Positions 4,562-14,072 of a stretch of 64,000 nt of DNA are shown here, in pieces. The stretch is from Escherichia phage APECc02. The stretch lies in sequence record NC_041869.1. The stretch is one strand, 5' to 3'. How positions within the stretch are numbered: position 1 is the first letter of the stretch; every line of letters starts with the position of its first letter. The notes below the pieces were generated by a model that worked only from the letters and a program-made list of their open reading frames with translations, was not told the origin of the DNA and did not search any database. The position numbers were made by a program, and so were the translations under genes.

Positions 4562-5845
4562 TCATTCCAGAACCTCCCAAGTATCTGGGTTAACATTTCG
4601 GACGCAGATACCGACAGGGAATTGGTAGTTGTTGTCTTCTGTCCTTGCTTGATATTTGAAGGTGACAAACTTGCCGATCATTTCCTGCATCCTGTCATAG
4701 CTACGCTCCTCGTGCGTGCCTTTCATCTTCATTTTAACAACAACACCTTCCTTGTCAACACAGATAAGAACACCTTCATCATTCTTATCTTTCTCAACGT
4801 CAATAACTTTCACCTCTGCGTCGTTGAACTTTTTCCATTTCAATGCTTCAGATGTTCGCTGACCATACTCATATTTACCACAGAAGTTACGCATAATGGT
4901 ACCTTCATATCCTTCAGACATAAATATACCAACAGACTCTTCGCACCGATCAACCGTATATGCAAGCTCTGCATCAACAACCTTAATATGATCAAGCATC
5001 AAAGAAGTAATAGCACCGTTTGCCTCCATAAGATCCTTACAGCGACCAGACTCTGTTTCAGGATCCCACCACACCTTATCGCTAGGAATATCGAAAATAT
5101 GATACTCTAAGTCGTAGCTGCAGTACCCTCCGTAACGCAAATCATCACGAACAGGCTCAACATCAACAGGAATGTCCACCTTGTTGAAGTTTTTGTATGT
5201 TGCTAAACCTGCTTTAATCGCAGCCTGACGGCGTTTTTTATCTGCCTTGTAGTCTTTATCGATCTCGGCCTGAATTTCTTCCTGTGTGCGCCACCGTTTA
5301 GCAAGAGACACTATTTTCTGCAGAGGCAGACCATGAATATAGAGCTCTCCGTCGAGCTGTTTAATCCCGGTGGTTAGGTGGAAAGAGCGAAGTTGCTCCA
5401 GAAGCTTTCCTTGAATAGGGTAGGACTTATTACCACGGGAAATAAATTTAGGCTCACCATTCTGGAAAACAACAAGTAGACGAAGGCCATCTAACTTACG
5501 CAAGATCCAGCAAGGTAATTTAAGTGCCTTGCCACGCTTCAGGTAGTCATGCACCAACATGGGTAAAAGATCAACACCTTGCTCACAATCTTCCATACTC
5601 TCCACGTACCCGAGTCGGACCTGTTTTTCCCACTTACTGATCGCTTCCAGCTCGGCCTGTTGCTCAGCTGTAGTTTCATTGGCGCGACCCACGTTCTTAG
5701 GTGTGCAGATCGTCTCTTTGTATTGCAGTTTACCATCAAGCTTGCCAAACTCTACGATAACCTTATCACCATCCGTGAATACTTTCCACTGTTGGTAGCT
5801 GCCATCTTTGTTCAGTGCGTACAGTGTTGTTTTGATTTGATGCAT
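4562..5845 (-). CDS. ATP-dependent DNA ligase
   Basis: 427 aa; nucleotidyltransferase motif I KLDGLR (adenylated Lys), motif IV EGTIMR, motif V LKWKK. Confidence 0.85.
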   Translation of the reverse strand: MHQIKTTLYALNKDGSYQQWKVFTDGDKVIVEFGKLDGKLQYKETICTPKNVGRANETTAEQQAELEAISKWEKQVRLGYVESMEDCEQGVDLLPMLVHDYLKRGKALKLPCWILRKLDGLRLLVVFQNGEPKFISRGNKSYPIQGKLLEQLRSFHLTTGIKQLDGELYIHGLPLQKIVSLAKRWRTQEEIQAEIDKDYKADKKRRQAAIKAGLATYKNFNKVDIPVDVEPVRDDLRYGGYCSYDLEYHIFDIPSDKVWWDPETESGRCKDLMEANGAITSLMLDHIKVVDAELAYTVDRCEESVGIFMSEGYEGTIMRNFCGKYEYGQRTSEALKWKKFNDAEVKVIDVEKDKNDEGVLICVDKEGVVVKMKMKGTHEERSYDRMQEMIGKFVTFKYQARTEDNNYQFPVGICVRNVNPDTWEVLE

Positions 5846-6114
5846 TACTCGGCCTCTTCCTTAAAAATTTTAAACATCTCTTCTTTACTCATTACCAACC
5901 AGTCCCCCATAAAATCAACAAGCCAATCACCCTGGTACAAGACTAGGTTACCAAACGGCTCTACAAGCTCACACATGCGACGAAGATCTCTGGTCCGAAC
6001 AGGTGACGATGTAAACACACCTGTATCAATCCACCGTTGCAGATCAGATACTGATGAAGAGCTTCCGTCAAACTGGTGTGCTTCTACAGGTTTAGCAAGA
6101 TTAAATAACGGCAT
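5845..6114 (-). CDS. hypothetical protein
   Basis: 89-aa ORF, abuts the ligase gene. Confidence 0.45.
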   Translation of the reverse strand: MPLFNLAKPVEAHQFDGSSSSVSDLQRWIDTGVFTSSPVRTRDLRRMCELVEPFGNLVLYQGDWLVDFMGDWLVMSKEEMFKIFKEEAE

Positions 6115-6439
6115 TGCAGTCCTCCTTATCTAATAGATCTTTTATTGGGTAAACAAGCAGGTGTGGATCGTAATAATTTATAGTTTTATTCTGCCACACT
6201 ATGAACTTAATTACAACTAAATTTACCACATCTTTATCTCCATGTAGTCCAACACACAGATTTGTCCATATTTTGTGGTTGAATACTTTGCTGTCGATGT
6301 AGATCTTAGTGTCAAACTTATCCTCTATCCTGCCTATAAGTTTAACCAACTCTTTCATCTGATCCCCAAACACAGCATCGTTTTCAAGATCTCTAGAGTG
6401 CTTGTACATAACTATCTGCCTCACTTGCATACTTTCCAC
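6101..6439 (-). CDS. hypothetical protein
   Basis: 112-aa ORF, overlaps its neighbour by 14 nt. Confidence 0.45.
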   Translation of the reverse strand: MESMQVRQIVMYKHSRDLENDAVFGDQMKELVKLIGRIEDKFDTKIYIDSKVFNHKIWTNLCVGLHGDKDVVNLVVIKFIVWQNKTINYYDPHLLVYPIKDLLDKEDCNAVI

Positions 6440-6472
6440 AACAAGTAAAGCCGGGTAATCCCGGCCATGTTG

Positions 6473-7186
6473 TTAAATATACTCTGCTACATCCTTGAAG
6501 CTCGAAGGCTTCATGATCTTACCTTTACTGTCAAGGAATATGATAACTTTATTACCGTTGTAGAATTCTTCCTTAGCAACAAAACCTTCATATCGACCAT
6601 CAAAGCGTCGCTCAAGATCTTTAATCTCCAACTCTATGAGTTGTTCAGCAGGCATATCTGCACTGGCACCGTGTGAATACCGTAGATGGTTGACCCGTGC
6701 AAACTTGCTGTCATTCGATTTGAGAACCTTACGCATCATCCCGCACACATCGCCGCGAAGCTGGAACAGCAAAGCTGTTGACAACTCCGCTAAACGGTAA
6801 GCTGACGCTCTTTGCTTGGATGTGTTTTTCGCAGCGATCAGTGTGTCATAGAACTCACCGATCTTGAACTTAAGACCTTGTGGATTATCAAACAGGTTTG
6901 ACCACTTTTCGTGATTGTCATTAACAAGATAAGCTGCATAACTTGTGACAACGTGAAGATCGCAGGCCTCCTTTAGCAGGTGATCTCCACCATCACCTTT
7001 CTCCAGCTCTTCCAAAACTTCATTGAACTCTTCCTCAATGAAGCTAAGCTGTAATTCGAATGGTGTGTATGATTTTTTCACTTTAGCTGCCACACGGTTC
7101 CAGTTTTCCACCCAGTTGGCAGACCAAAGGTAGTTTTCAGGTTGGGATAGTTTTTCCAGGTTGTCAATTAATTTAGTATTCAGCAT
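6473..7186 (-). CDS. hypothetical protein, possible MazG-like all-alpha NTP pyrophosphohydrolase
   Basis: 237 aa; EEEFNEVLEELEKGDGGDHLLKEACDLH resembles the EExxE...E..D metal-binding helix pattern of MazG/HisE-type enzymes. Weak. Confidence 0.4.
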   Translation of the reverse strand: MLNTKLIDNLEKLSQPENYLWSANWVENWNRVAAKVKKSYTPFELQLSFIEEEFNEVLEELEKGDGGDHLLKEACDLHVVTSYAAYLVNDNHEKWSNLFDNPQGLKFKIGEFYDTLIAAKNTSKQRASAYRLAELSTALLFQLRGDVCGMMRKVLKSNDSKFARVNHLRYSHGASADMPAEQLIELEIKDLERRFDGRYEGFVAKEEFYNGNKVIIFLDSKGKIMKPSSFKDVAEYI

Positions 7187-7199
7187 TAAAGGTCTCCTT

Positions 7200-7961
7200 T
7201 TAAAGTTCCATAAAGTTTTCTACAGTCTCAATGAATGTTTTATCAGAGAAGGCATCAACCGCACCGTTAAACCAAACTGGGATGCCGCGATCCTCATACT
7301 GGTAAATATCACTACGTGAAATGCCATTCTCCTCTAGATGCTGTGAGTCGTATTTATTAACGATCAGTAGTTTGGTTCCCTTATTGCAGGCAGGGAATAG
7401 CTCCCAGTTAAAATTGATAACTGTGTTGGAGCACCCTACAAGGATAACCATATCATTGCTCGTAAGAGAAGTCAACAGGTCATACATGTCTGTATACTTC
7501 GGAGCTACTTCTCCGAAGAACACCACATTAGGCTTAACCCAGGTATACTTTCCTGCGTCTACCTCAGAGTATCCAATGTCCTTAATGACGTCACTTCCTT
7601 CATCGTCCTCATAGACTATTTCTGGCAAATACCCGTGGACATGTAAAATATCTTCATGTTTTACACCAGCACGCTCCAGCAAATCATCTACATTGGTGGT
7701 AAGGTTGATCACACGACCAGACCAGCGGGAATACCACTCAGCGATCCGAAGATGTGCAAGGTTAGGCTCAACACTGCCTAAAGCTACACGACGTGCATTG
7801 TAAAAGTCATGCACCTTATAGTAGTTCTTGGCAAAGGTGTGGATGTTGCACACCTCATCGATGCTGAAATTCTCCCACATTGCAGTGCTACCAGATCGGA
7901 AAGTGGGAATACCAGATTCAGCGCTCAAACCAGCACCGGAGATAATAATCAGTCGTCGCAT
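7200..7961 (-). CDS. Sir2-family (sirtuin-like) NAD-dependent deacetylase / ADP-ribosyltransferase
   Basis: 253 aa; the three sirtuin hallmark motifs are present: ISGAGLSAESGIPTFRS (GAGxSxxSGIPxFR), TTNVDDL (TQNID-like) and HVHGY (catalytic His-Gly). Confidence 0.8.
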   Translation of the reverse strand: MRRLIIISGAGLSAESGIPTFRSGSTAMWENFSIDEVCNIHTFAKNYYKVHDFYNARRVALGSVEPNLAHLRIAEWYSRWSGRVINLTTNVDDLLERAGVKHEDILHVHGYLPEIVYEDDEGSDVIKDIGYSEVDAGKYTWVKPNVVFFGEVAPKYTDMYDLLTSLTSNDMVILVGCSNTVINFNWELFPACNKGTKLLIVNKYDSQHLEENGISRSDIYQYEDRGIPVWFNGAVDAFSDKTFIETVENFMEL

Positions 7962-7969
7962 AAGTGTCC

Positions 7970-8320
7970 TCAGTAGATGTTTTGTTTAATCTCTATTCCA
8001 AACTTTTTAAACGAGTCAGCTGCAAGCATGAATTTACGAGCCGCTGATGGGTTAGAAGTATGCACGAAAATCTTCACGTTGTCAACTACAGGAGGCTTAC
8101 CAAATACAAATTTTTCCTCTAGGATGCAGAAGCAATCGTATCCTTCAAAAATTTCTCCCAAGTCGCTGTCAAAATGCCACTCAGAAACTCGTCTATAAAG
8201 CTTTCTCTTGTCATTGATGAAATCCATAAACTCAGAAGAGTTCTTCAGCCAAAGAGCATCTTGGAGCCCGTAATTTGACGGATCTCTCAAGTCATCCAGC
8301 CACACAATCAACTTCTTCAT
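7970..8320 (-). CDS. hypothetical protein
   Basis: 116-aa ORF packed between the Sir2 gene and the RNA-ligase-like gene. Confidence 0.45.
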   Translation of the reverse strand: MKKLIVWLDDLRDPSNYGLQDALWLKNSSEFMDFINDKRKLYRRVSEWHFDSDLGEIFEGYDCFCILEEKFVFGKPPVVDNVKIFVHTSNPSAARKFMLAADSFKKFGIEIKQNIY

Positions 8321-9252
8321 TGCATATAGTCCTCGTTGTGGAAATAGTAGTCAAGTATCTCGCGGCGTTCCTGCTCAAGGAGACAGTTCCACACATCTTC
8401 TGTGTAATTGCTACGAATGAAGTTTACCATGCCGTAAAACTCTTCGTCAACACGTTTAAAGATATCCTCATCCCAAATCTTCCAAGCTTTACCTCTCATT
8501 ACGGCCTTCCGTGCCAAATAGTACGGAGACTTGATCTTCAGCTGCAGATCATAAGGGTAGTAAGGCTTACGAATCATATACCCTTCACCTCTTGTTTCTG
8601 CAGCTAATTCTTTTGCATAACTGAACGGAATTTCACGCACAGTGTGAGGACGTTTTGCACCAAGGTATTTGGCAATCCCATCTAAAGCTGCCTCTGGTAG
8701 CATTATTCCAGAATCATTATATCTGCAACCTATCAAATATGCGCCATGATCTTCCTGAACAATATGCGGATCTGAAGGGTGACAAATTTCAAACATGAAT
8801 GTCATGTTTTCATTGCCCATAACCTTCTTGATAAGATCTAAATTACCACATTGCTCCTGGATGGTTTCCTTTGCGAGGTTACAATATGGAGAATCAAGAG
8901 ATCCGGTTGTTGAGAACAATAGTTCACCTTTATGAGAGGATACCACACCAAGGAATCCGTTCTTTTTCTCTACCGCCGTCACAAGCTTATTGTCAGGCAG
9001 GTTGGTGGAGTTTTCTCCCAAGTTAAACACTTTTGTGAAGGGCCATGCCACAACATTTCCTTCATTACCGACAACAATGCCTCGGCACTCCAGTAAACGA
9101 GGGGACAAATGCCATAAATTGTTGTAAAATACTTTTCTGGCATATTTATAGATCTTTAACCCAAGATCCGGGTAATATCTACTGGTTACAAGACCTTTGT
9201 CAACTAGGTCGTCTGCATTAAAATACTTCATCATACGTTCCTCATTTGTCAT
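8317..9252 (-). CDS. putative RNA ligase (covalent nucleotidyltransferase)
   Basis: 311 aa; motif I KKNGF (Kx[DN]G), motif IV EGYMIRK, motif V LKIK; a separate DNA ligase already exists at 4562-5845 and a PNK-like kinase lies next door. Confidence 0.6.
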   Translation of the reverse strand: MTNEERMMKYFNADDLVDKGLVTSRYYPDLGLKIYKYARKVFYNNLWHLSPRLLECRGIVVGNEGNVVAWPFTKVFNLGENSTNLPDNKLVTAVEKKNGFLGVVSSHKGELLFSTTGSLDSPYCNLAKETIQEQCGNLDLIKKVMGNENMTFMFEICHPSDPHIVQEDHGAYLIGCRYNDSGIMLPEAALDGIAKYLGAKRPHTVREIPFSYAKELAAETRGEGYMIRKPYYPYDLQLKIKSPYYLARKAVMRGKAWKIWDEDIFKRVDEEFYGMVNFIRSNYTEDVWNCLLEQERREILDYYFHNEDYMQ

Positions 9253-9295
9253 TTTGTCAGTCTATCCTGCCACACAAATAACCTAGTGTCAACAC

Positions 9296-9324
9296 TTGAA
9301 ATTAACAAAACAGTTAGGTATACT
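9296..9324 (+). promoter_or_regulatory. sigma70-like promoter (TTGAAA-N17-TATACT)
   Basis: Hexamers with 17-nt spacing in the divergent intergenic region upstream of the kinase gene. Confidence 0.5.
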
Positions 9325-9352
9325 ATCGTTGAAATTAAAACGGAGTATTACT

Positions 9353-9763
9353 ATGTCTAAAATGCTATATATCGTGCGTGGTCTACCAGGGTCTGGCAAA
9401 TCAACACTGGCAAATGCGCTATCTTTAGAAGGTCTGTATCCACATTTTGAGAACGACATGTTCTGGTACGACGATGATGGAAATTACAACTGGGATGCAA
9501 GTAAAGTAACACTTGCAGCAAAATGGTGCAAAGATAACGTAGAAGATATGATGCGTATGGGATACGACCGTATCGTGGTAAGTAATACGTTTACAAAAGA
9601 AAAATATGTGCAAGAATATATTGACATGGCGATCAGTCATGGGTATAGTTATACCGTGATCGTGGTTGAAAACCGCCATGGTAATAAAAGCATTCATGAT
9701 GTTCCAGACAGGGTTGTGGATCGTATGGAACGCCAGCTTAAAAATTGCATTAAACTTAAATGA
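9353..9763 (+). CDS. polynucleotide 5'-kinase (P-loop, T4 Pnk kinase-domain-like)
   Basis: Start moved to the ATG at 9353 (GGAG RBS upstream). Walker A GLPGSGKST and IVVSNTFT resemble the T4 Pnk N-terminal kinase domain. Confidence 0.7.
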   Translation: MSKMLYIVRGLPGSGKSTLANALSLEGLYPHFENDMFWYDDDGNYNWDASKVTLAAKWCKDNVEDMMRMGYDRIVVSNTFTKEKYVQEYIDMAISHGYSYTVIVVENRHGNKSIHDVPDRVVDRMERQLKNCIKLK

Positions 9764-9770
9764 GGAATGT

Positions 9771-10325
9771 ATGAAATACTTTGTAACAAGCGACACACAC
9801 TTTCTCCACCAGCGGGTCATGGAGTTCGACTCATGTCAAAAACACAGATCTCAGTATGATCACAATCTTGACAGTATGAATGCGGGAATCATCACCGAGT
9901 GGAACTCTGTTGTGTCACCTGCAGACACTGTGTTCCACCTGGGAGATATTGCGTGCACTAATGATAAGAATATCAACAAATTGCTCCCAGATGTTCTAAA
10001 TATGTTGAACGGACATATTATTCTTGTTCGTGGTAACCATGACACAAGGACGACTGTCAGAATTATGAAAGAGTTCGGTCATGAGGTTGTAGATTATTAC
10101 GAGCTTCGCCACAACAAGAATTTGATCTGTATGAGCCATTACCAGTTTGCAAAGTGGAACAGAAAGCCTCACGGATCAGTCCAACTGTTCGGTCATGCTC
10201 ACGGAACCACACAGCAGTTGTTTGGCAGGCAGTTTGATGTCGGTTGGGATGTGTGGGGGAGACTCTTACCATTAGAAGAGGCATACCGTATTGCAATGAG
10301 TCTTGCTATTGACAGCGGGGAGTAA
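9771..10325 (+). CDS. calcineurin-like metallophosphoesterase
   Basis: Start at the ATG at 9771 (GAGGA RBS). Metallophosphatase motifs SDTHF, GDIA, GNHD and GHAHG. Confidence 0.75.
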   Translation: MKYFVTSDTHFLHQRVMEFDSCQKHRSQYDHNLDSMNAGIITEWNSVVSPADTVFHLGDIACTNDKNINKLLPDVLNMLNGHIILVRGNHDTRTTVRIMKEFGHEVVDYYELRHNKNLICMSHYQFAKWNRKPHGSVQLFGHAHGTTQQLFGRQFDVGWDVWGRLLPLEEAYRIAMSLAIDSGE

Positions 10326-13259: not shown

Positions 13260-13334
13260 GCCCTGTTAGCTTAGTGGATAAAGCAGCGGCCTTCTAAGCC
13301 GTTGACACTGGTTCGAGTCCAGTACGGGGTGCCA
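13260..13334 (+). tRNA. tRNA-Arg (anticodon TCT)
   Basis: Hand-folded cloverleaf: acceptor gccctgt/acggggt (two G-U pairs), D stem gctt/aagc, anticodon loop cttctaa, T arm actgg-ttcgagt-ccagt, encoded CCA. Confidence 0.75.
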
Positions 13335-13338
13335 AATT

Positions 13339-13425
13339 GGGGAGTTATCCCGTAGAGGTAGCGGTGTAGACTGTAAATCTATTGTCATTGCGACTCGGGT
13401 GGTTCGACTCCACCACTCCCCACCA
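13339..13425 (+). tRNA. tRNA-Tyr (anticodon GTA), long variable arm
   Basis: Acceptor ggggagt/actcccc, anticodon loop ctgtaaa, T arm ggtgg-ttcgact-ccacc, encoded CCA; 87 nt type II. Confidence 0.75.
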
Positions 13426-13539
13426 AATTTACATTTTTAAATGCATAAATCATACAGATAATGGCATTGATATTTATCGTCGTTTATACTAGTCACTAAC
13501 TGCTCGAAAATCAGTGTCATTATCAGTATTGTTTATAAA

Positions 13540-13630
13540 TGAGGGTAGGGAGCAATGGTGCTCAAGCGGTCTTGAAAACCGTCCCGTTGAGGATGACTCG
13601 ATGATGGTTCGATTCCATTACCCTCAGCCA
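13540..13630 (+). tRNA. tRNA-Ser (anticodon TGA), long variable arm
   Basis: Acceptor tgagggt/accctca, anticodon stem-loop gcggt-cttgaaa-accgt, T loop ttcgatt, encoded CCA; 91 nt. Confidence 0.7.
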
Positions 13631-13728
13631 TATTGTTGACCTTGTAATTAAGCGAAAGCCGGAAGCAGAACCGGATTATCAAATGTTACAGTCGTCATCG
13701 CCGACTAGCAACATGGTCAACATACTGA

Positions 13729-13825
13729 GCTAGGTAAGCCCTTTGGCAAGGGCGAGGATTTTTAATCCTGAAAATAGACGAGGTAGTCGTTGAATACATA
13801 GGTGGTTCGATTCCATCACCTAGCA
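13729..13825 (+). tRNA. tRNA-like gene, identity ambiguous (anticodon possibly TTT, Lys)
   Basis: Perfect acceptor gctaggt/acctagc, D stem gccc/gggc, T arm ggtgg-ttcgatt-ccatc, but about 30 nt between anticodon arm and T arm, no position-26 spacer, no encoded CCA. Confidence 0.4.
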
Positions 13826-13832
13826 CCTTTTT

Positions 13833-13908
13833 GCTGATGTAGCACAATTGGTAGTGCAATTGATTTGTAATCAATAGGTTGCAGGTTCGAGTCCTGCTAT
13901 CAGCACCA
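13833..13908 (+). tRNA. tRNA-Thr (anticodon TGT)
   Basis: Acceptor gctgatg/tatcagc, D stem gcac/gtgc, anticodon arm attga-tttgtaa-tcaat, T arm gcagg-ttcgagt-cctgc, CCA; 76 nt. Confidence 0.8.
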
Positions 13909-13909
13909 T

Positions 13910-13984
13910 GGCCCTGTAGCTGGAAGGTTCAAGCAAGCGACTCATAATCGCCAGACGGTGGTTCAATTCCACCCAGGGCCACCA
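13910..13984 (+). tRNA. tRNA with CAT anticodon (Met, or Ile2 read via lysidine)
   Basis: Acceptor ggccctg/cagggcc, anticodon loop ctcataa, T arm ggtgg-ttcaatt-ccacc, CCA. The anticodon arm gcgactcataatcgc resembles bacterial tRNA-Ile2 as I recall it. Confidence 0.7.
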
Positions 13985-13995
13985 AATAATAAATA

Positions 13996-14072
13996 CTCCG
14001 CGTAGCTCAGCTTGGTAGAGCGCCTGATTTGGGATCAGGAGGTCGAGTGTTCGAATCACTCCGTGGAGACCA
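13996..14072 (+). tRNA. tRNA-Pro (anticodon TGG)
   Basis: Acceptor ctccgcg/cgtggag with C1-G72, D arm gctc-agcttggta-gagc, anticodon arm cctga-tttggga-tcagg, T arm gagtg-ttcgaat-cactc, CCA. Confidence 0.8.

Follow-up and report, generated by a model that had tools for sequence, protein, structure and literature searches.

Within a 64,000-nucleotide (nt) stretch of the genome of Escherichia phage APECc02 (NC_041869.1; hereafter the window), the open reading frame (ORF) at 7200-7961 encodes a genuine sirtuin-fold enzyme of the Sir2 family that lies among genes for RNA-end-processing proteins. The window derives from an rV5-like coliphage of the genus Vequintavirus and is 98% identical to Escherichia phage slur16; over region 5845-8320 the identity to slur16 is 98.1%, and this region has matches in 119 phage records. 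A preliminary description of the window had presented the gene as an unexpected find within an undescribed module acting on nicotinamide adenine dinucleotide (NAD) or ADP-ribose. The finding is real but already known: the family is widely annotated, with the 253-amino-acid (aa) ORF labelled Sir2-like or NAD-dependent deacetylase in these matching records (more than 100 near-identical genomes), and the module is in print for this phage group.

Pfam SIR2 (PF02146) matches the protein with E 3e-27 (96.2 bits against a cut-off of 24) and phrog_2162 with E 9e-110, so the assignment is far beyond chance. All three sirtuin motifs named in the preliminary description are in place, reading G9-A-G-L-S-A-E-S-G-I-P-T-F-R22, T88-T-N-V-D-D-L94 and H109-G110. 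Across 31 homologues the NAD+-binding GAGxSxxxGIPxFR and TxNxD motifs and the catalytic HG are invariant, and these family members keep G9-A-G, S16, G17, F21, R22, Y54, R57, N90, D92, H109 and the FFGE loop. An AlphaFold2 model built on the 31 homologues, with a predicted local distance difference test (pLDDT) score of 89.5, places the protein inside the sirtuin fold. The best Foldseek match was E. coli CobB (6rxq/1s5p; E 1e-18, template modelling (TM) score 0.75-0.83), followed by human SIRT5 and archaeal Sir2, with E-values for CobB, SIRT5 and Sir2Af ranging from 1e-18 to 1e-14; BLASTP aligned 184 residues with E. coli CobB at 32% identity. By Pfam search the protein has one domain only, and it is acidic, with an isoelectric point (pI) of 4.8 against a family median of 5.1. 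The sirtuin is probably active.

Residues 53-58, FYNARR, are identical to CobB 91-96 and align with FYHYRR of SIRT5. The Tyr/Arg pair of SIRT5 and CobB binds the carboxylate of succinyl- or malonyl-lysine. In the phage family Y54 and R57 are invariant in the 31 sequences, and 14 of 15 diverse phage sequences retain them; the sirtuin of our jumbo-phage locus L061 has no arginine equivalent to R57. What we show here, on alignment and modelled structure, is that the phage sirtuin descends from CobB/SIRT5-type (class III) sirtuins and retains the NAD+ pocket and catalytic histidine intact. It shares with CobB and SIRT5 the fold (TM about 0.8), the GAGxS...FR, TxNxD and HG motifs, the Tyr/Arg pair of FYNARR and the FGE loop, but it has no Cys4 zinc ribbon, reads VIN for VYP, falls below the equivalog cut-offs and sits in an RNA-repair context.

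The Cys4 zinc ribbon is missing from the small domain, cysteines occurring only at positions 38, 177 and 192 of the protein; in the family alignment the linker from HG to KPN is a short hairpin of 27-33 residues without a conserved cysteine. Loss of zinc in phage Sir2/CobB was pointed out earlier by Skliros et al. (2016). Distant jumbo-phage homologues (L060 and L061, about 42% identity) still carry the CxxC...CxxC zinc-ribbon cysteines, so the loss is secondary; because these cysteines are gone in the T5/rV5-type proteins and present in the distant ones, the small domain at the substrate cleft has been remodelled. The VYP peptide-binding loop of cellular sirtuins reads VIN here, and W29, C38, G130-Y131, N179 and W186 are family-specific invariant residues.

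The protein misses the CobB equivalog cut-offs of NCBIfam NF040867 and NF001753 (103.5 against 320 bits and 122.7 against 243 bits, respectively). KptA/Tpt1 (PF01885) is not among its Pfam matches; a true phage KptA scores 3e-43. Searched against the defence-type Sir2 models of PADLOC, the sirtuin produced a sole, sub-significant match (13.6 bits to PDC-S65), and with no significant PADLOC match we rejected the reading of it as a defence-type NADase. The protein is CobB/SIRT5-like and unrelated to the NAD-depleting Sir2 effectors of anti-phage defence that the preliminary description had mentioned. It shares the superfamily and the NAD+ substrate with the defence NADases (ThsA, DSR1/2, SIR2-HerA, SPARSA), but unlike them it is a 253-aa single domain without a sensor, from the classical PF02146 branch.

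The cluster is compact and adjoins RNA-repair genes, as first described: an Rnl1-type ligase, a cyclic-phosphate processing receiver-like (cREC) protein, a polynucleotide-kinase-like kinase and a metallophosphoesterase are encoded no more than 2.5 kb from the sirtuin (Table 1). The ligase matches PF09511 with E 6.4e-15 (56 bits, cut-off 28.3) and phrog_562 with E 4e-66, and its nucleotidyltransferase motifs I, IV and V (K-x-N/D-G, EG[YF] and LK[IV]K) are kept in 13 homologues; since it stays below the TIGR02308 cut-off (39.6 against 242), we regard it as a member of the family and not as the equivalog of T4 RnlA. The cREC ORF, one of three small ORFs that had been listed as having no known function, matches PF20274 with E 1.7e-13 (51.4 bits, cut-off 27), and its WLDDLRDP, WHFDxDLGE and HTSNPSA segments are invariant in seven homologues; all three small ORFs exist. 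For the P-loop kinase we took the start from the annotation of a close relative; the match to phrog_505 (polynucleotide kinase) has E 5e-10. The metallophosphoesterase has weak NCBIfam matches to the PdeM and YfcE phosphoesterases. By their conserved motifs, the partner proteins of the sirtuin in the window appear catalytically intact. PDB sequence searches with the profile of the nucleoside triphosphate (NTP) pyrophosphohydrolase that follows the sirtuin, with the RNA ligase and with cREC gave nothing useful.

Table 1. Features of the sirtuin neighbourhood and the tRNA cluster in the window.
Feature	Coordinates	Strand	Basis and remarks
ATP-dependent DNA ligase, 427 aa, last of the tight run	4562-5845	-	PF01068, PF14743; phrog_114 E 2e-83
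89-aa ORF	5845-6114	-	phrog_14585 E 2e-63; AGGAGG ribosome-binding site
102-aa ORF (ATG 6409; 112 aa if from GTG 6439)	6101-6409	-	phrog_7684 E 1e-49
G+C-rich hairpin, terminator-like	6449-6466	-	perfect 6-bp stem GCCGGG-ATTA-CCCGGC, then T-rich; TTTACTTGTTG
All-alpha NTP pyrophosphohydrolase, 237 aa	6473-7186	-	MazG/HisE superfamily by sequence; closest to dimeric dUTPases by fold
Zinc-less class-III-like sirtuin, 253 aa	7200-7961	-	PF02146, AlphaFold2, Foldseek
cREC protein, 116 aa	7970-8320	-	PF20274
T4 Rnl1-type RNA ligase, 311 aa, first of the minus-strand run	8317-9252	-	PF09511, phrog_562
P-loop kinase, polynucleotide-kinase-like, 136 aa	9353-9763	+	AAA_33 E 5e-10; phrog_2071 E 7e-59; phrog_505
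Calcineurin-like metallophosphoesterase, 184 aa	9771-10325	+	PF12850, PF00149; phrog_547 E 5e-52
Phage tRNA gene cluster	13260-14072	+	ARAGORN, 7 genes; Rfam tRNA, 6 matches

This gene set has a published description. Iyer, Burroughs, Anantharaman and Aravind (2022; Viruses 14:1977, PMC9503650, section 3.7.3) defined a sirtuin-centred phage RNA-repair neighbourhood, type 2, whose prototypes are Escherichia phage V5 and Proteus phage Mydo, and described two variants besides, one T5-like (SP15) with HAD and one of jumbo phages. They treat viral sirtuins as ADP-ribosyltransferases and propose that the sirtuin strips 2'-phosphates from RNA with NAD+, in the manner of KptA/Tpt1; cREC is predicted in the same paper to open 2',3'-cyclic or ADP-ribose 1''-2''-cyclic phosphates. 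The module is thus in print with V5 itself as a prototype and is not undescribed, while a role for the sirtuin at the NAD/ADP-ribose interface of the phage-host conflict, as the preliminary description had it, is the leading published prediction. Six type 2 members lie in 6473-10325 (sirtuin, T4-like RNA ligase, cREC, nucleotide kinase, MazG-superfamily pyrophosphatase and calcineurin-like phosphoesterase). The window agrees with type 2 in phage group and gene set; it is an instance of it and differs from it in nothing substantive. To the published account we add the loss of the zinc cysteines, the retention of the Tyr/Arg pair, the dimeric-dUTPase-like fold of the 'MazG' protein, the division of the run by a hairpin, the conservation of two small ORFs and the tight linkage of the ATP-dependent DNA ligase.

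Homologues of the sirtuin number 861 at E < 1e-5 in a large protein collection, and tblastn places one in approximately 1,009 phage records. Carriers include Vequintavirus, T5-like, Mydovirus, Phapecoctavirus-like, KVP40-like and jumbo phages; the T5 homologue, T5.102, is 58% identical. Given this spread across many phage groups, a phage-borne sirtuin is ordinary and not the surprise it had been taken for: the KVP40 and T5 records are annotated as such, and phage Sir2 proteins have been discussed in print since at least 2016.

For a test of gene context, we took 60 viral loci with a homologue, clustered the neighbouring proteins and searched them with profiles from the window proteins and T5.105. 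At least one RNA-end-processing neighbour lies within 5 kb of the sirtuin in 45 of the 60 loci. In the rV5- and Mydovirus-like phages and in related 145-153-kb phages, genes for RNA ligase, cREC, kinase, phosphoesterase, NTP pyrophosphohydrolase and DNA ligase and both small ORFs are found no more than about 4 kb from the sirtuin, in shuffled order, and the full type 2 gene set recurs in 11-14 related loci. None of the rV5-type partner genes is near the sirtuin in the T5-like loci; there, 28 loci encode a phosphatase of the HAD_SAK_2 'Swiss-army-knife RNA repair' family (T5.105 in T5; PF18143, E 4e-20) at 16-463 nt downstream of the sirtuin, and one further locus has it at a distance of 2.4 kb. 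A jumbo-phage contig of 607 kb encodes an Rnl1 ligase (PF09511, E 3e-28) approximately 1.2 kb upstream of the sirtuin. Linkage of the sirtuin to RNA-end-processing genes therefore recurs in separate lineages, with the T5-like phages and the one jumbo-phage contig as independent confirmation.

Two other arrangements were seen around the gene. In T5, tandem DUF7415 proteins (T5.106 and T5.107; 9098-9928 in our locus L062) follow the sirtuin and HAD_SAK_2, and they are kept in 31 T5-like loci. In Phapecoctavirus-like loci (L032-L040 and L050) the sirtuin is preceded by a DUF7275/DUF7277 protein, a 227-aa protein and two acidic proteins, and we detected no RNA-repair gene within 5 kb; the 227-aa protein has no Pfam match and shows, by eye, cytosine-methyltransferase-like FDGSG and FPPC motifs.

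Following Iyer et al. (2022), we consider a sirtuin-centred RNA-repair cluster in rV5-like phages, with the sirtuin as the final remover of the 2'-phosphate, to be the likeliest explanation, though one that falls somewhat short of an even chance. Under this scheme, host anticodon nucleases or other metal-independent RNases would cut tRNA or other RNA to leave 2',3'-cyclic phosphate and 5'-OH ends. Either cREC or the phosphoesterase would open the cyclic phosphate to a 2'-phosphate, the P-loop kinase would phosphorylate the 5' end, and the Rnl1-type ligase would seal the break. The sirtuin would then move the 2'-phosphate onto NAD+, releasing nicotinamide and ADP-ribose 1''-2''-cyclic phosphate as KptA/Tpt1 does. 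The cutting, healing and sealing steps follow from the family assignments, and the sirtuin step from gene context and chemical analogy.

The chemistry would be formally that of the two-step Tpt1 scheme, in which first an oxygen of the substrate attacks NAD+ at C1'' and then the His-activated ribose 2''-OH attacks the electrophilic centre of the substrate, and sirtuin catalysis fits it. By the same analogy, the Tyr54/Arg57 pocket could hold a phosphate in place of a carboxylate; the kept pocket and the remodelled small domain fit a shift from anionic acyl-lysine to phosphate. In its most specific form, we tentatively propose for the zinc-less phage sirtuin a genuine RNA 2'-phosphotransferase activity, by which it would replace Tpt1/KptA without being homologous to it; Tyr54/Arg57 would position the 2'-phosphate to attack NAD+, and the enzyme would complete a yeast-like (Trl1 plus Tpt1-style) healing-and-sealing pathway in T5-like and rV5-like phages; taken whole, we think this possible and somewhat doubtful.

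Comparison with known systems bears on the proposal. KptA/Tpt1 (PF01885) has in common with the phage sirtuin the proposed reaction, the NAD+ co-substrate and partners of the ligase, cyclic phosphodiesterase and kinase types, but the folds are unrelated (ART-like against a Rossmann sirtuin) and the phages that carry KptA are a different, mostly jumbo set. We found KptA homologues in 98 phage records, mostly of jumbo phages, and none of these records is named as an Escherichia or Salmonella phage. This scarcity against the approximately 1,009 sirtuin records is compatible with functional replacement, though as evidence it is weak. Two phage KptA neighbourhoods, inspected for the partner genes of the sirtuin with KptA standing in for it, were nearly all unannotated and gave only a weak Macro_2 match in Pfam. 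The T4 pair of Pnkp and Rnl1 resembles the cluster in its Rnl1-family ligase, 5'-kinase and 3'-end phosphoesterase, in its virulent coliphage setting and in the phage tRNA genes nearby; it differs from the cluster, in which the kinase (AAA_33) and the calcineurin-like phosphoesterase are separate proteins and cREC, sirtuin and NTP pyrophosphohydrolase genes are added. To our knowledge, T4 has no NAD-dependent step.

Several observations weigh against a role for the sirtuin in RNA repair. Fifteen of the 60 loci, nine of them Phapecoctavirus-like, have no RNA-repair neighbour, and within the rV5-/Mydovirus-related group linkage is weak evidence because these phages share overall synteny. The acidic pI of the sirtuin is unlike that of typical RNA-binding enzymes, and all residues for ordinary lysine deacylation are kept. 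Full healing of cyclic ends by the phosphoesterase or HAD enzymes is possible and would leave a sirtuin no 2'-phosphate to remove, and E. coli K-12 itself encodes KptA. The literature on phage sirtuins that we found comprises papers on defence Sir2 proteins, Skliros et al. (2016) and Iyer et al. (2022), and in it there was no biochemical or genetic test of either the RNA-repair or the deacetylase idea.

The last of these ideas is the strongest competitor. The sirtuin may be a CobB-like NAD+-dependent lysine deacylase (deacetylase/desuccinylase) that resets host or phage acylation in the infected cell, for example to activate acetyl-CoA synthetase, with the RNA-repair genes merely co-located among early nucleic-acid-metabolism genes. 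Such a function would agree with CobB and SIRT5 being the nearest sequences and structures, with a FYNARR segment that includes the Tyr and Arg by which CobB binds succinyl-lysine, with the conserved His109 and FFGE loop, and with an acidic pI suited to a protein substrate. It is also a hypothesis in print: from an in-silico and transcript study, Skliros et al. (2016) suggested that a Vibrio phage Sir2/CobB deacetylates host acetyl-CoA synthetase. A stand-alone macro-domain gene, unlinked to the sirtuin, in a close relative (OR062943.1, 125324-125692) could supply hydrolysis of O-acyl-ADP-ribose. But the zinc ribbon, which contributes to the peptide cleft, is lost and the VYP loop reads VIN, the score is far under the NCBIfam CobB cut-off (122 against 243 bits), the host has its own CobB, and the repeated, lineage-independent linkage to RNA-end-processing enzymes would go unexplained. 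We judge deacylation unlikely on balance, while still a rival to be reckoned with. Separately, the macro-domain protein of OR062943.1 could also process ADP-ribose-1''-phosphate arising downstream of the sirtuin.

A further alternative is an ADP-ribosyltransferase that modifies protein or nucleic acid, as SirTM does, or 5'/3' RNA phosphates, and so marks or protects RNA ends or alters a host factor. Sirtuins are capable of ADP-ribosylation, the viral ones are so treated by Iyer et al. (2022; PMC9503650), this sirtuin has an intact NAD pocket, and the macro-domain gene lies elsewhere in the genome of the close relative. In contrast to SirTM operons, however, no macro gene is adjacent, the class III catalytic set is kept and nothing specific indicates a target, which leaves this reading improbable.

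Least likely, and very improbable, is the proposal of the preliminary description that the sirtuin and the MazG-like protein act together on the NAD/ADP-ribose pool, as a takeover NADase or a counter to NAD-depleting defence: the enzyme type is NAD-consuming and a nucleotide pyrophosphohydrolase gene does follow the sirtuin, but the protein is unrelated to the defence NADase families, an NAD consumer is a poor candidate for rescue from NAD depletion, the annotation of a close relative shows no genes for NAD resynthesis (NAMPT, NMNAT, Adps, Namat), the pyrophosphohydrolase has a dUTPase-like fold that makes a housekeeping dUTPase at least as likely, and a terminator-like hairpin sets the block apart from the small ORFs. 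We also considered, and set aside, a takeover by NAD depletion paired with the ATP-dependent DNA ligase; T5 has the same sirtuin, yet presumably an NAD-dependent ligase.

The window pyrophosphohydrolase, which had been called MazG-like, is sub-threshold in Pfam on its own (PRA-PH, E 0.095; 13.6 against 21.3 bits). Its superfamily membership stands through its relatives, 26 of 45 of which match PRA-PH and 11 of 45 MazG (best E 4e-7 and 6e-7), and through an EExxE ... E/DxxD metal-binding motif on the four-helix core; by fold it is closer to dUTPases. E53, E56, D76, N158, K161, K223 and K226 are invariant in a small family (165 representatives in a set of 1.84 billion proteins) that has its own C-terminal beta extension (GKIMKP). 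The closest folds are the dimeric dUTPases of a staphylococcal phage (Dut, 5myd), C. jejuni (1w2y) and L. major (2yay), from which, as from MazG/HisE, it differs by an identity of about 15% and an extra C-terminal beta-hairpin with an invariant GKIxKP. The genome annotation of a close relative includes ThyX, ribonucleotide reductases and a dNMP kinase and no other dUTPase. Because ThyX and ribonucleotide reductases are annotated there without a dUTPase, a housekeeping function of the dUTPase type is just as plausible for this protein, if not more so, as the breakdown of an ADP-ribose by-product of the sirtuin. By its fold it may simply be the dUTPase of the phage, and that it belongs to an 'NAD module' is not established.

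On the minus strand the genes run in the order RNA ligase, cREC, sirtuin, NTP pyrophosphohydrolase, 102-aa ORF, 89-aa ORF, ATP-dependent DNA ligase and endolysin, and the kinase and phosphoesterase genes are transcribed divergently from this run; the remainder of the window is a structural module. The overlapping operon of the preliminary description holds in part. Overlaps of 4 nt (RNA ligase/cREC), 14 nt (102-aa/89-aa ORFs) and 1 nt (89-aa ORF/DNA ligase) are present, with gaps of 8 nt between cREC and sirtuin and 13 nt between sirtuin and pyrophosphohydrolase. The sole sizeable gap, of 63 nt after the pyrophosphohydrolase gene, contains the hairpin, which parts ligase-cREC-sirtuin-pyrophosphohydrolase from the two small ORFs and the DNA ligase. 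Because of this hairpin with its T-rich tract, the run is probably two blocks rather than one seamless operon. In phage Gotham, a terminator is annotated under the region matching the window. Sigma-70-like matches are near background (24 against 14.6 ± 4.2), and the intergenic 9253-9352 has no such match on the minus strand.

The 102-aa ORF most likely starts at the ATG, which has a GAGG ribosome-binding site upstream. It has no match in Pfam, NCBIfam or PADLOC, and homologues lie within 4 kb of the sirtuin in eight related loci. The 89-aa ORF matches, besides phrog_14585, five weaker PHROGs; as all six are function-unknown families of different kinds, it represents a widespread small phage domain. 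It corresponds to the N-terminal domain of 153-160-aa proteins encoded just after the DNA ligase in Mydovirus-like loci (L023, 12060-12521; L041, 12324-12803). In seven Mydovirus-like loci (L023, L025, L026, L027, L030, L031 and L055), 3 nt separate the sirtuin stop from the DNA ligase start, suggesting that in this lineage the sirtuin is translationally coupled to the DNA ligase and not to the RNA ligase.

The tRNAs of the phage cluster are possible substrates of, or back-ups for, tRNA damage. One of the predictions on the plus strand, at 13729-13827, is a 99-nt 'tRNA-???' with a four-base anticodon (atcc) in ARAGORN and only 35.5 bits in Rfam; it could be intron-containing, frameshift-suppressor-like or degenerate.

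Approximately 18-25 unannotated 'Campylobacter phage' records (e.g., MG065652, MG065655, MG065635 and MG065676) are 93-100% identical to E. coli Vequintavirus across the region, and 'Campylobacter phage C11' encodes a sirtuin 100% identical to the one in the window. Whether these records name the right host looks doubtful.

As a near-identical copy of a described module, the window is no new instance of biology. The question of whether the sirtuin carries out Tpt1-like RNA chemistry has already been posed in print, and the RNA 2'-phosphotransferase idea is already published as a prediction; proof of it would be new. If the prediction is true, about 1,000 sequenced phages, T5-like and rV5-like ones among them, would use a sirtuin for an NAD+-dependent step in RNA repair. 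Sirtuin chemistry would be widened to nucleic-acid phosphates, with this family providing the first sirtuin that has such a substrate instead of acyl-lysine, and phages could use it to undo the cleavage of tRNA and mRNA by host defence nucleases.

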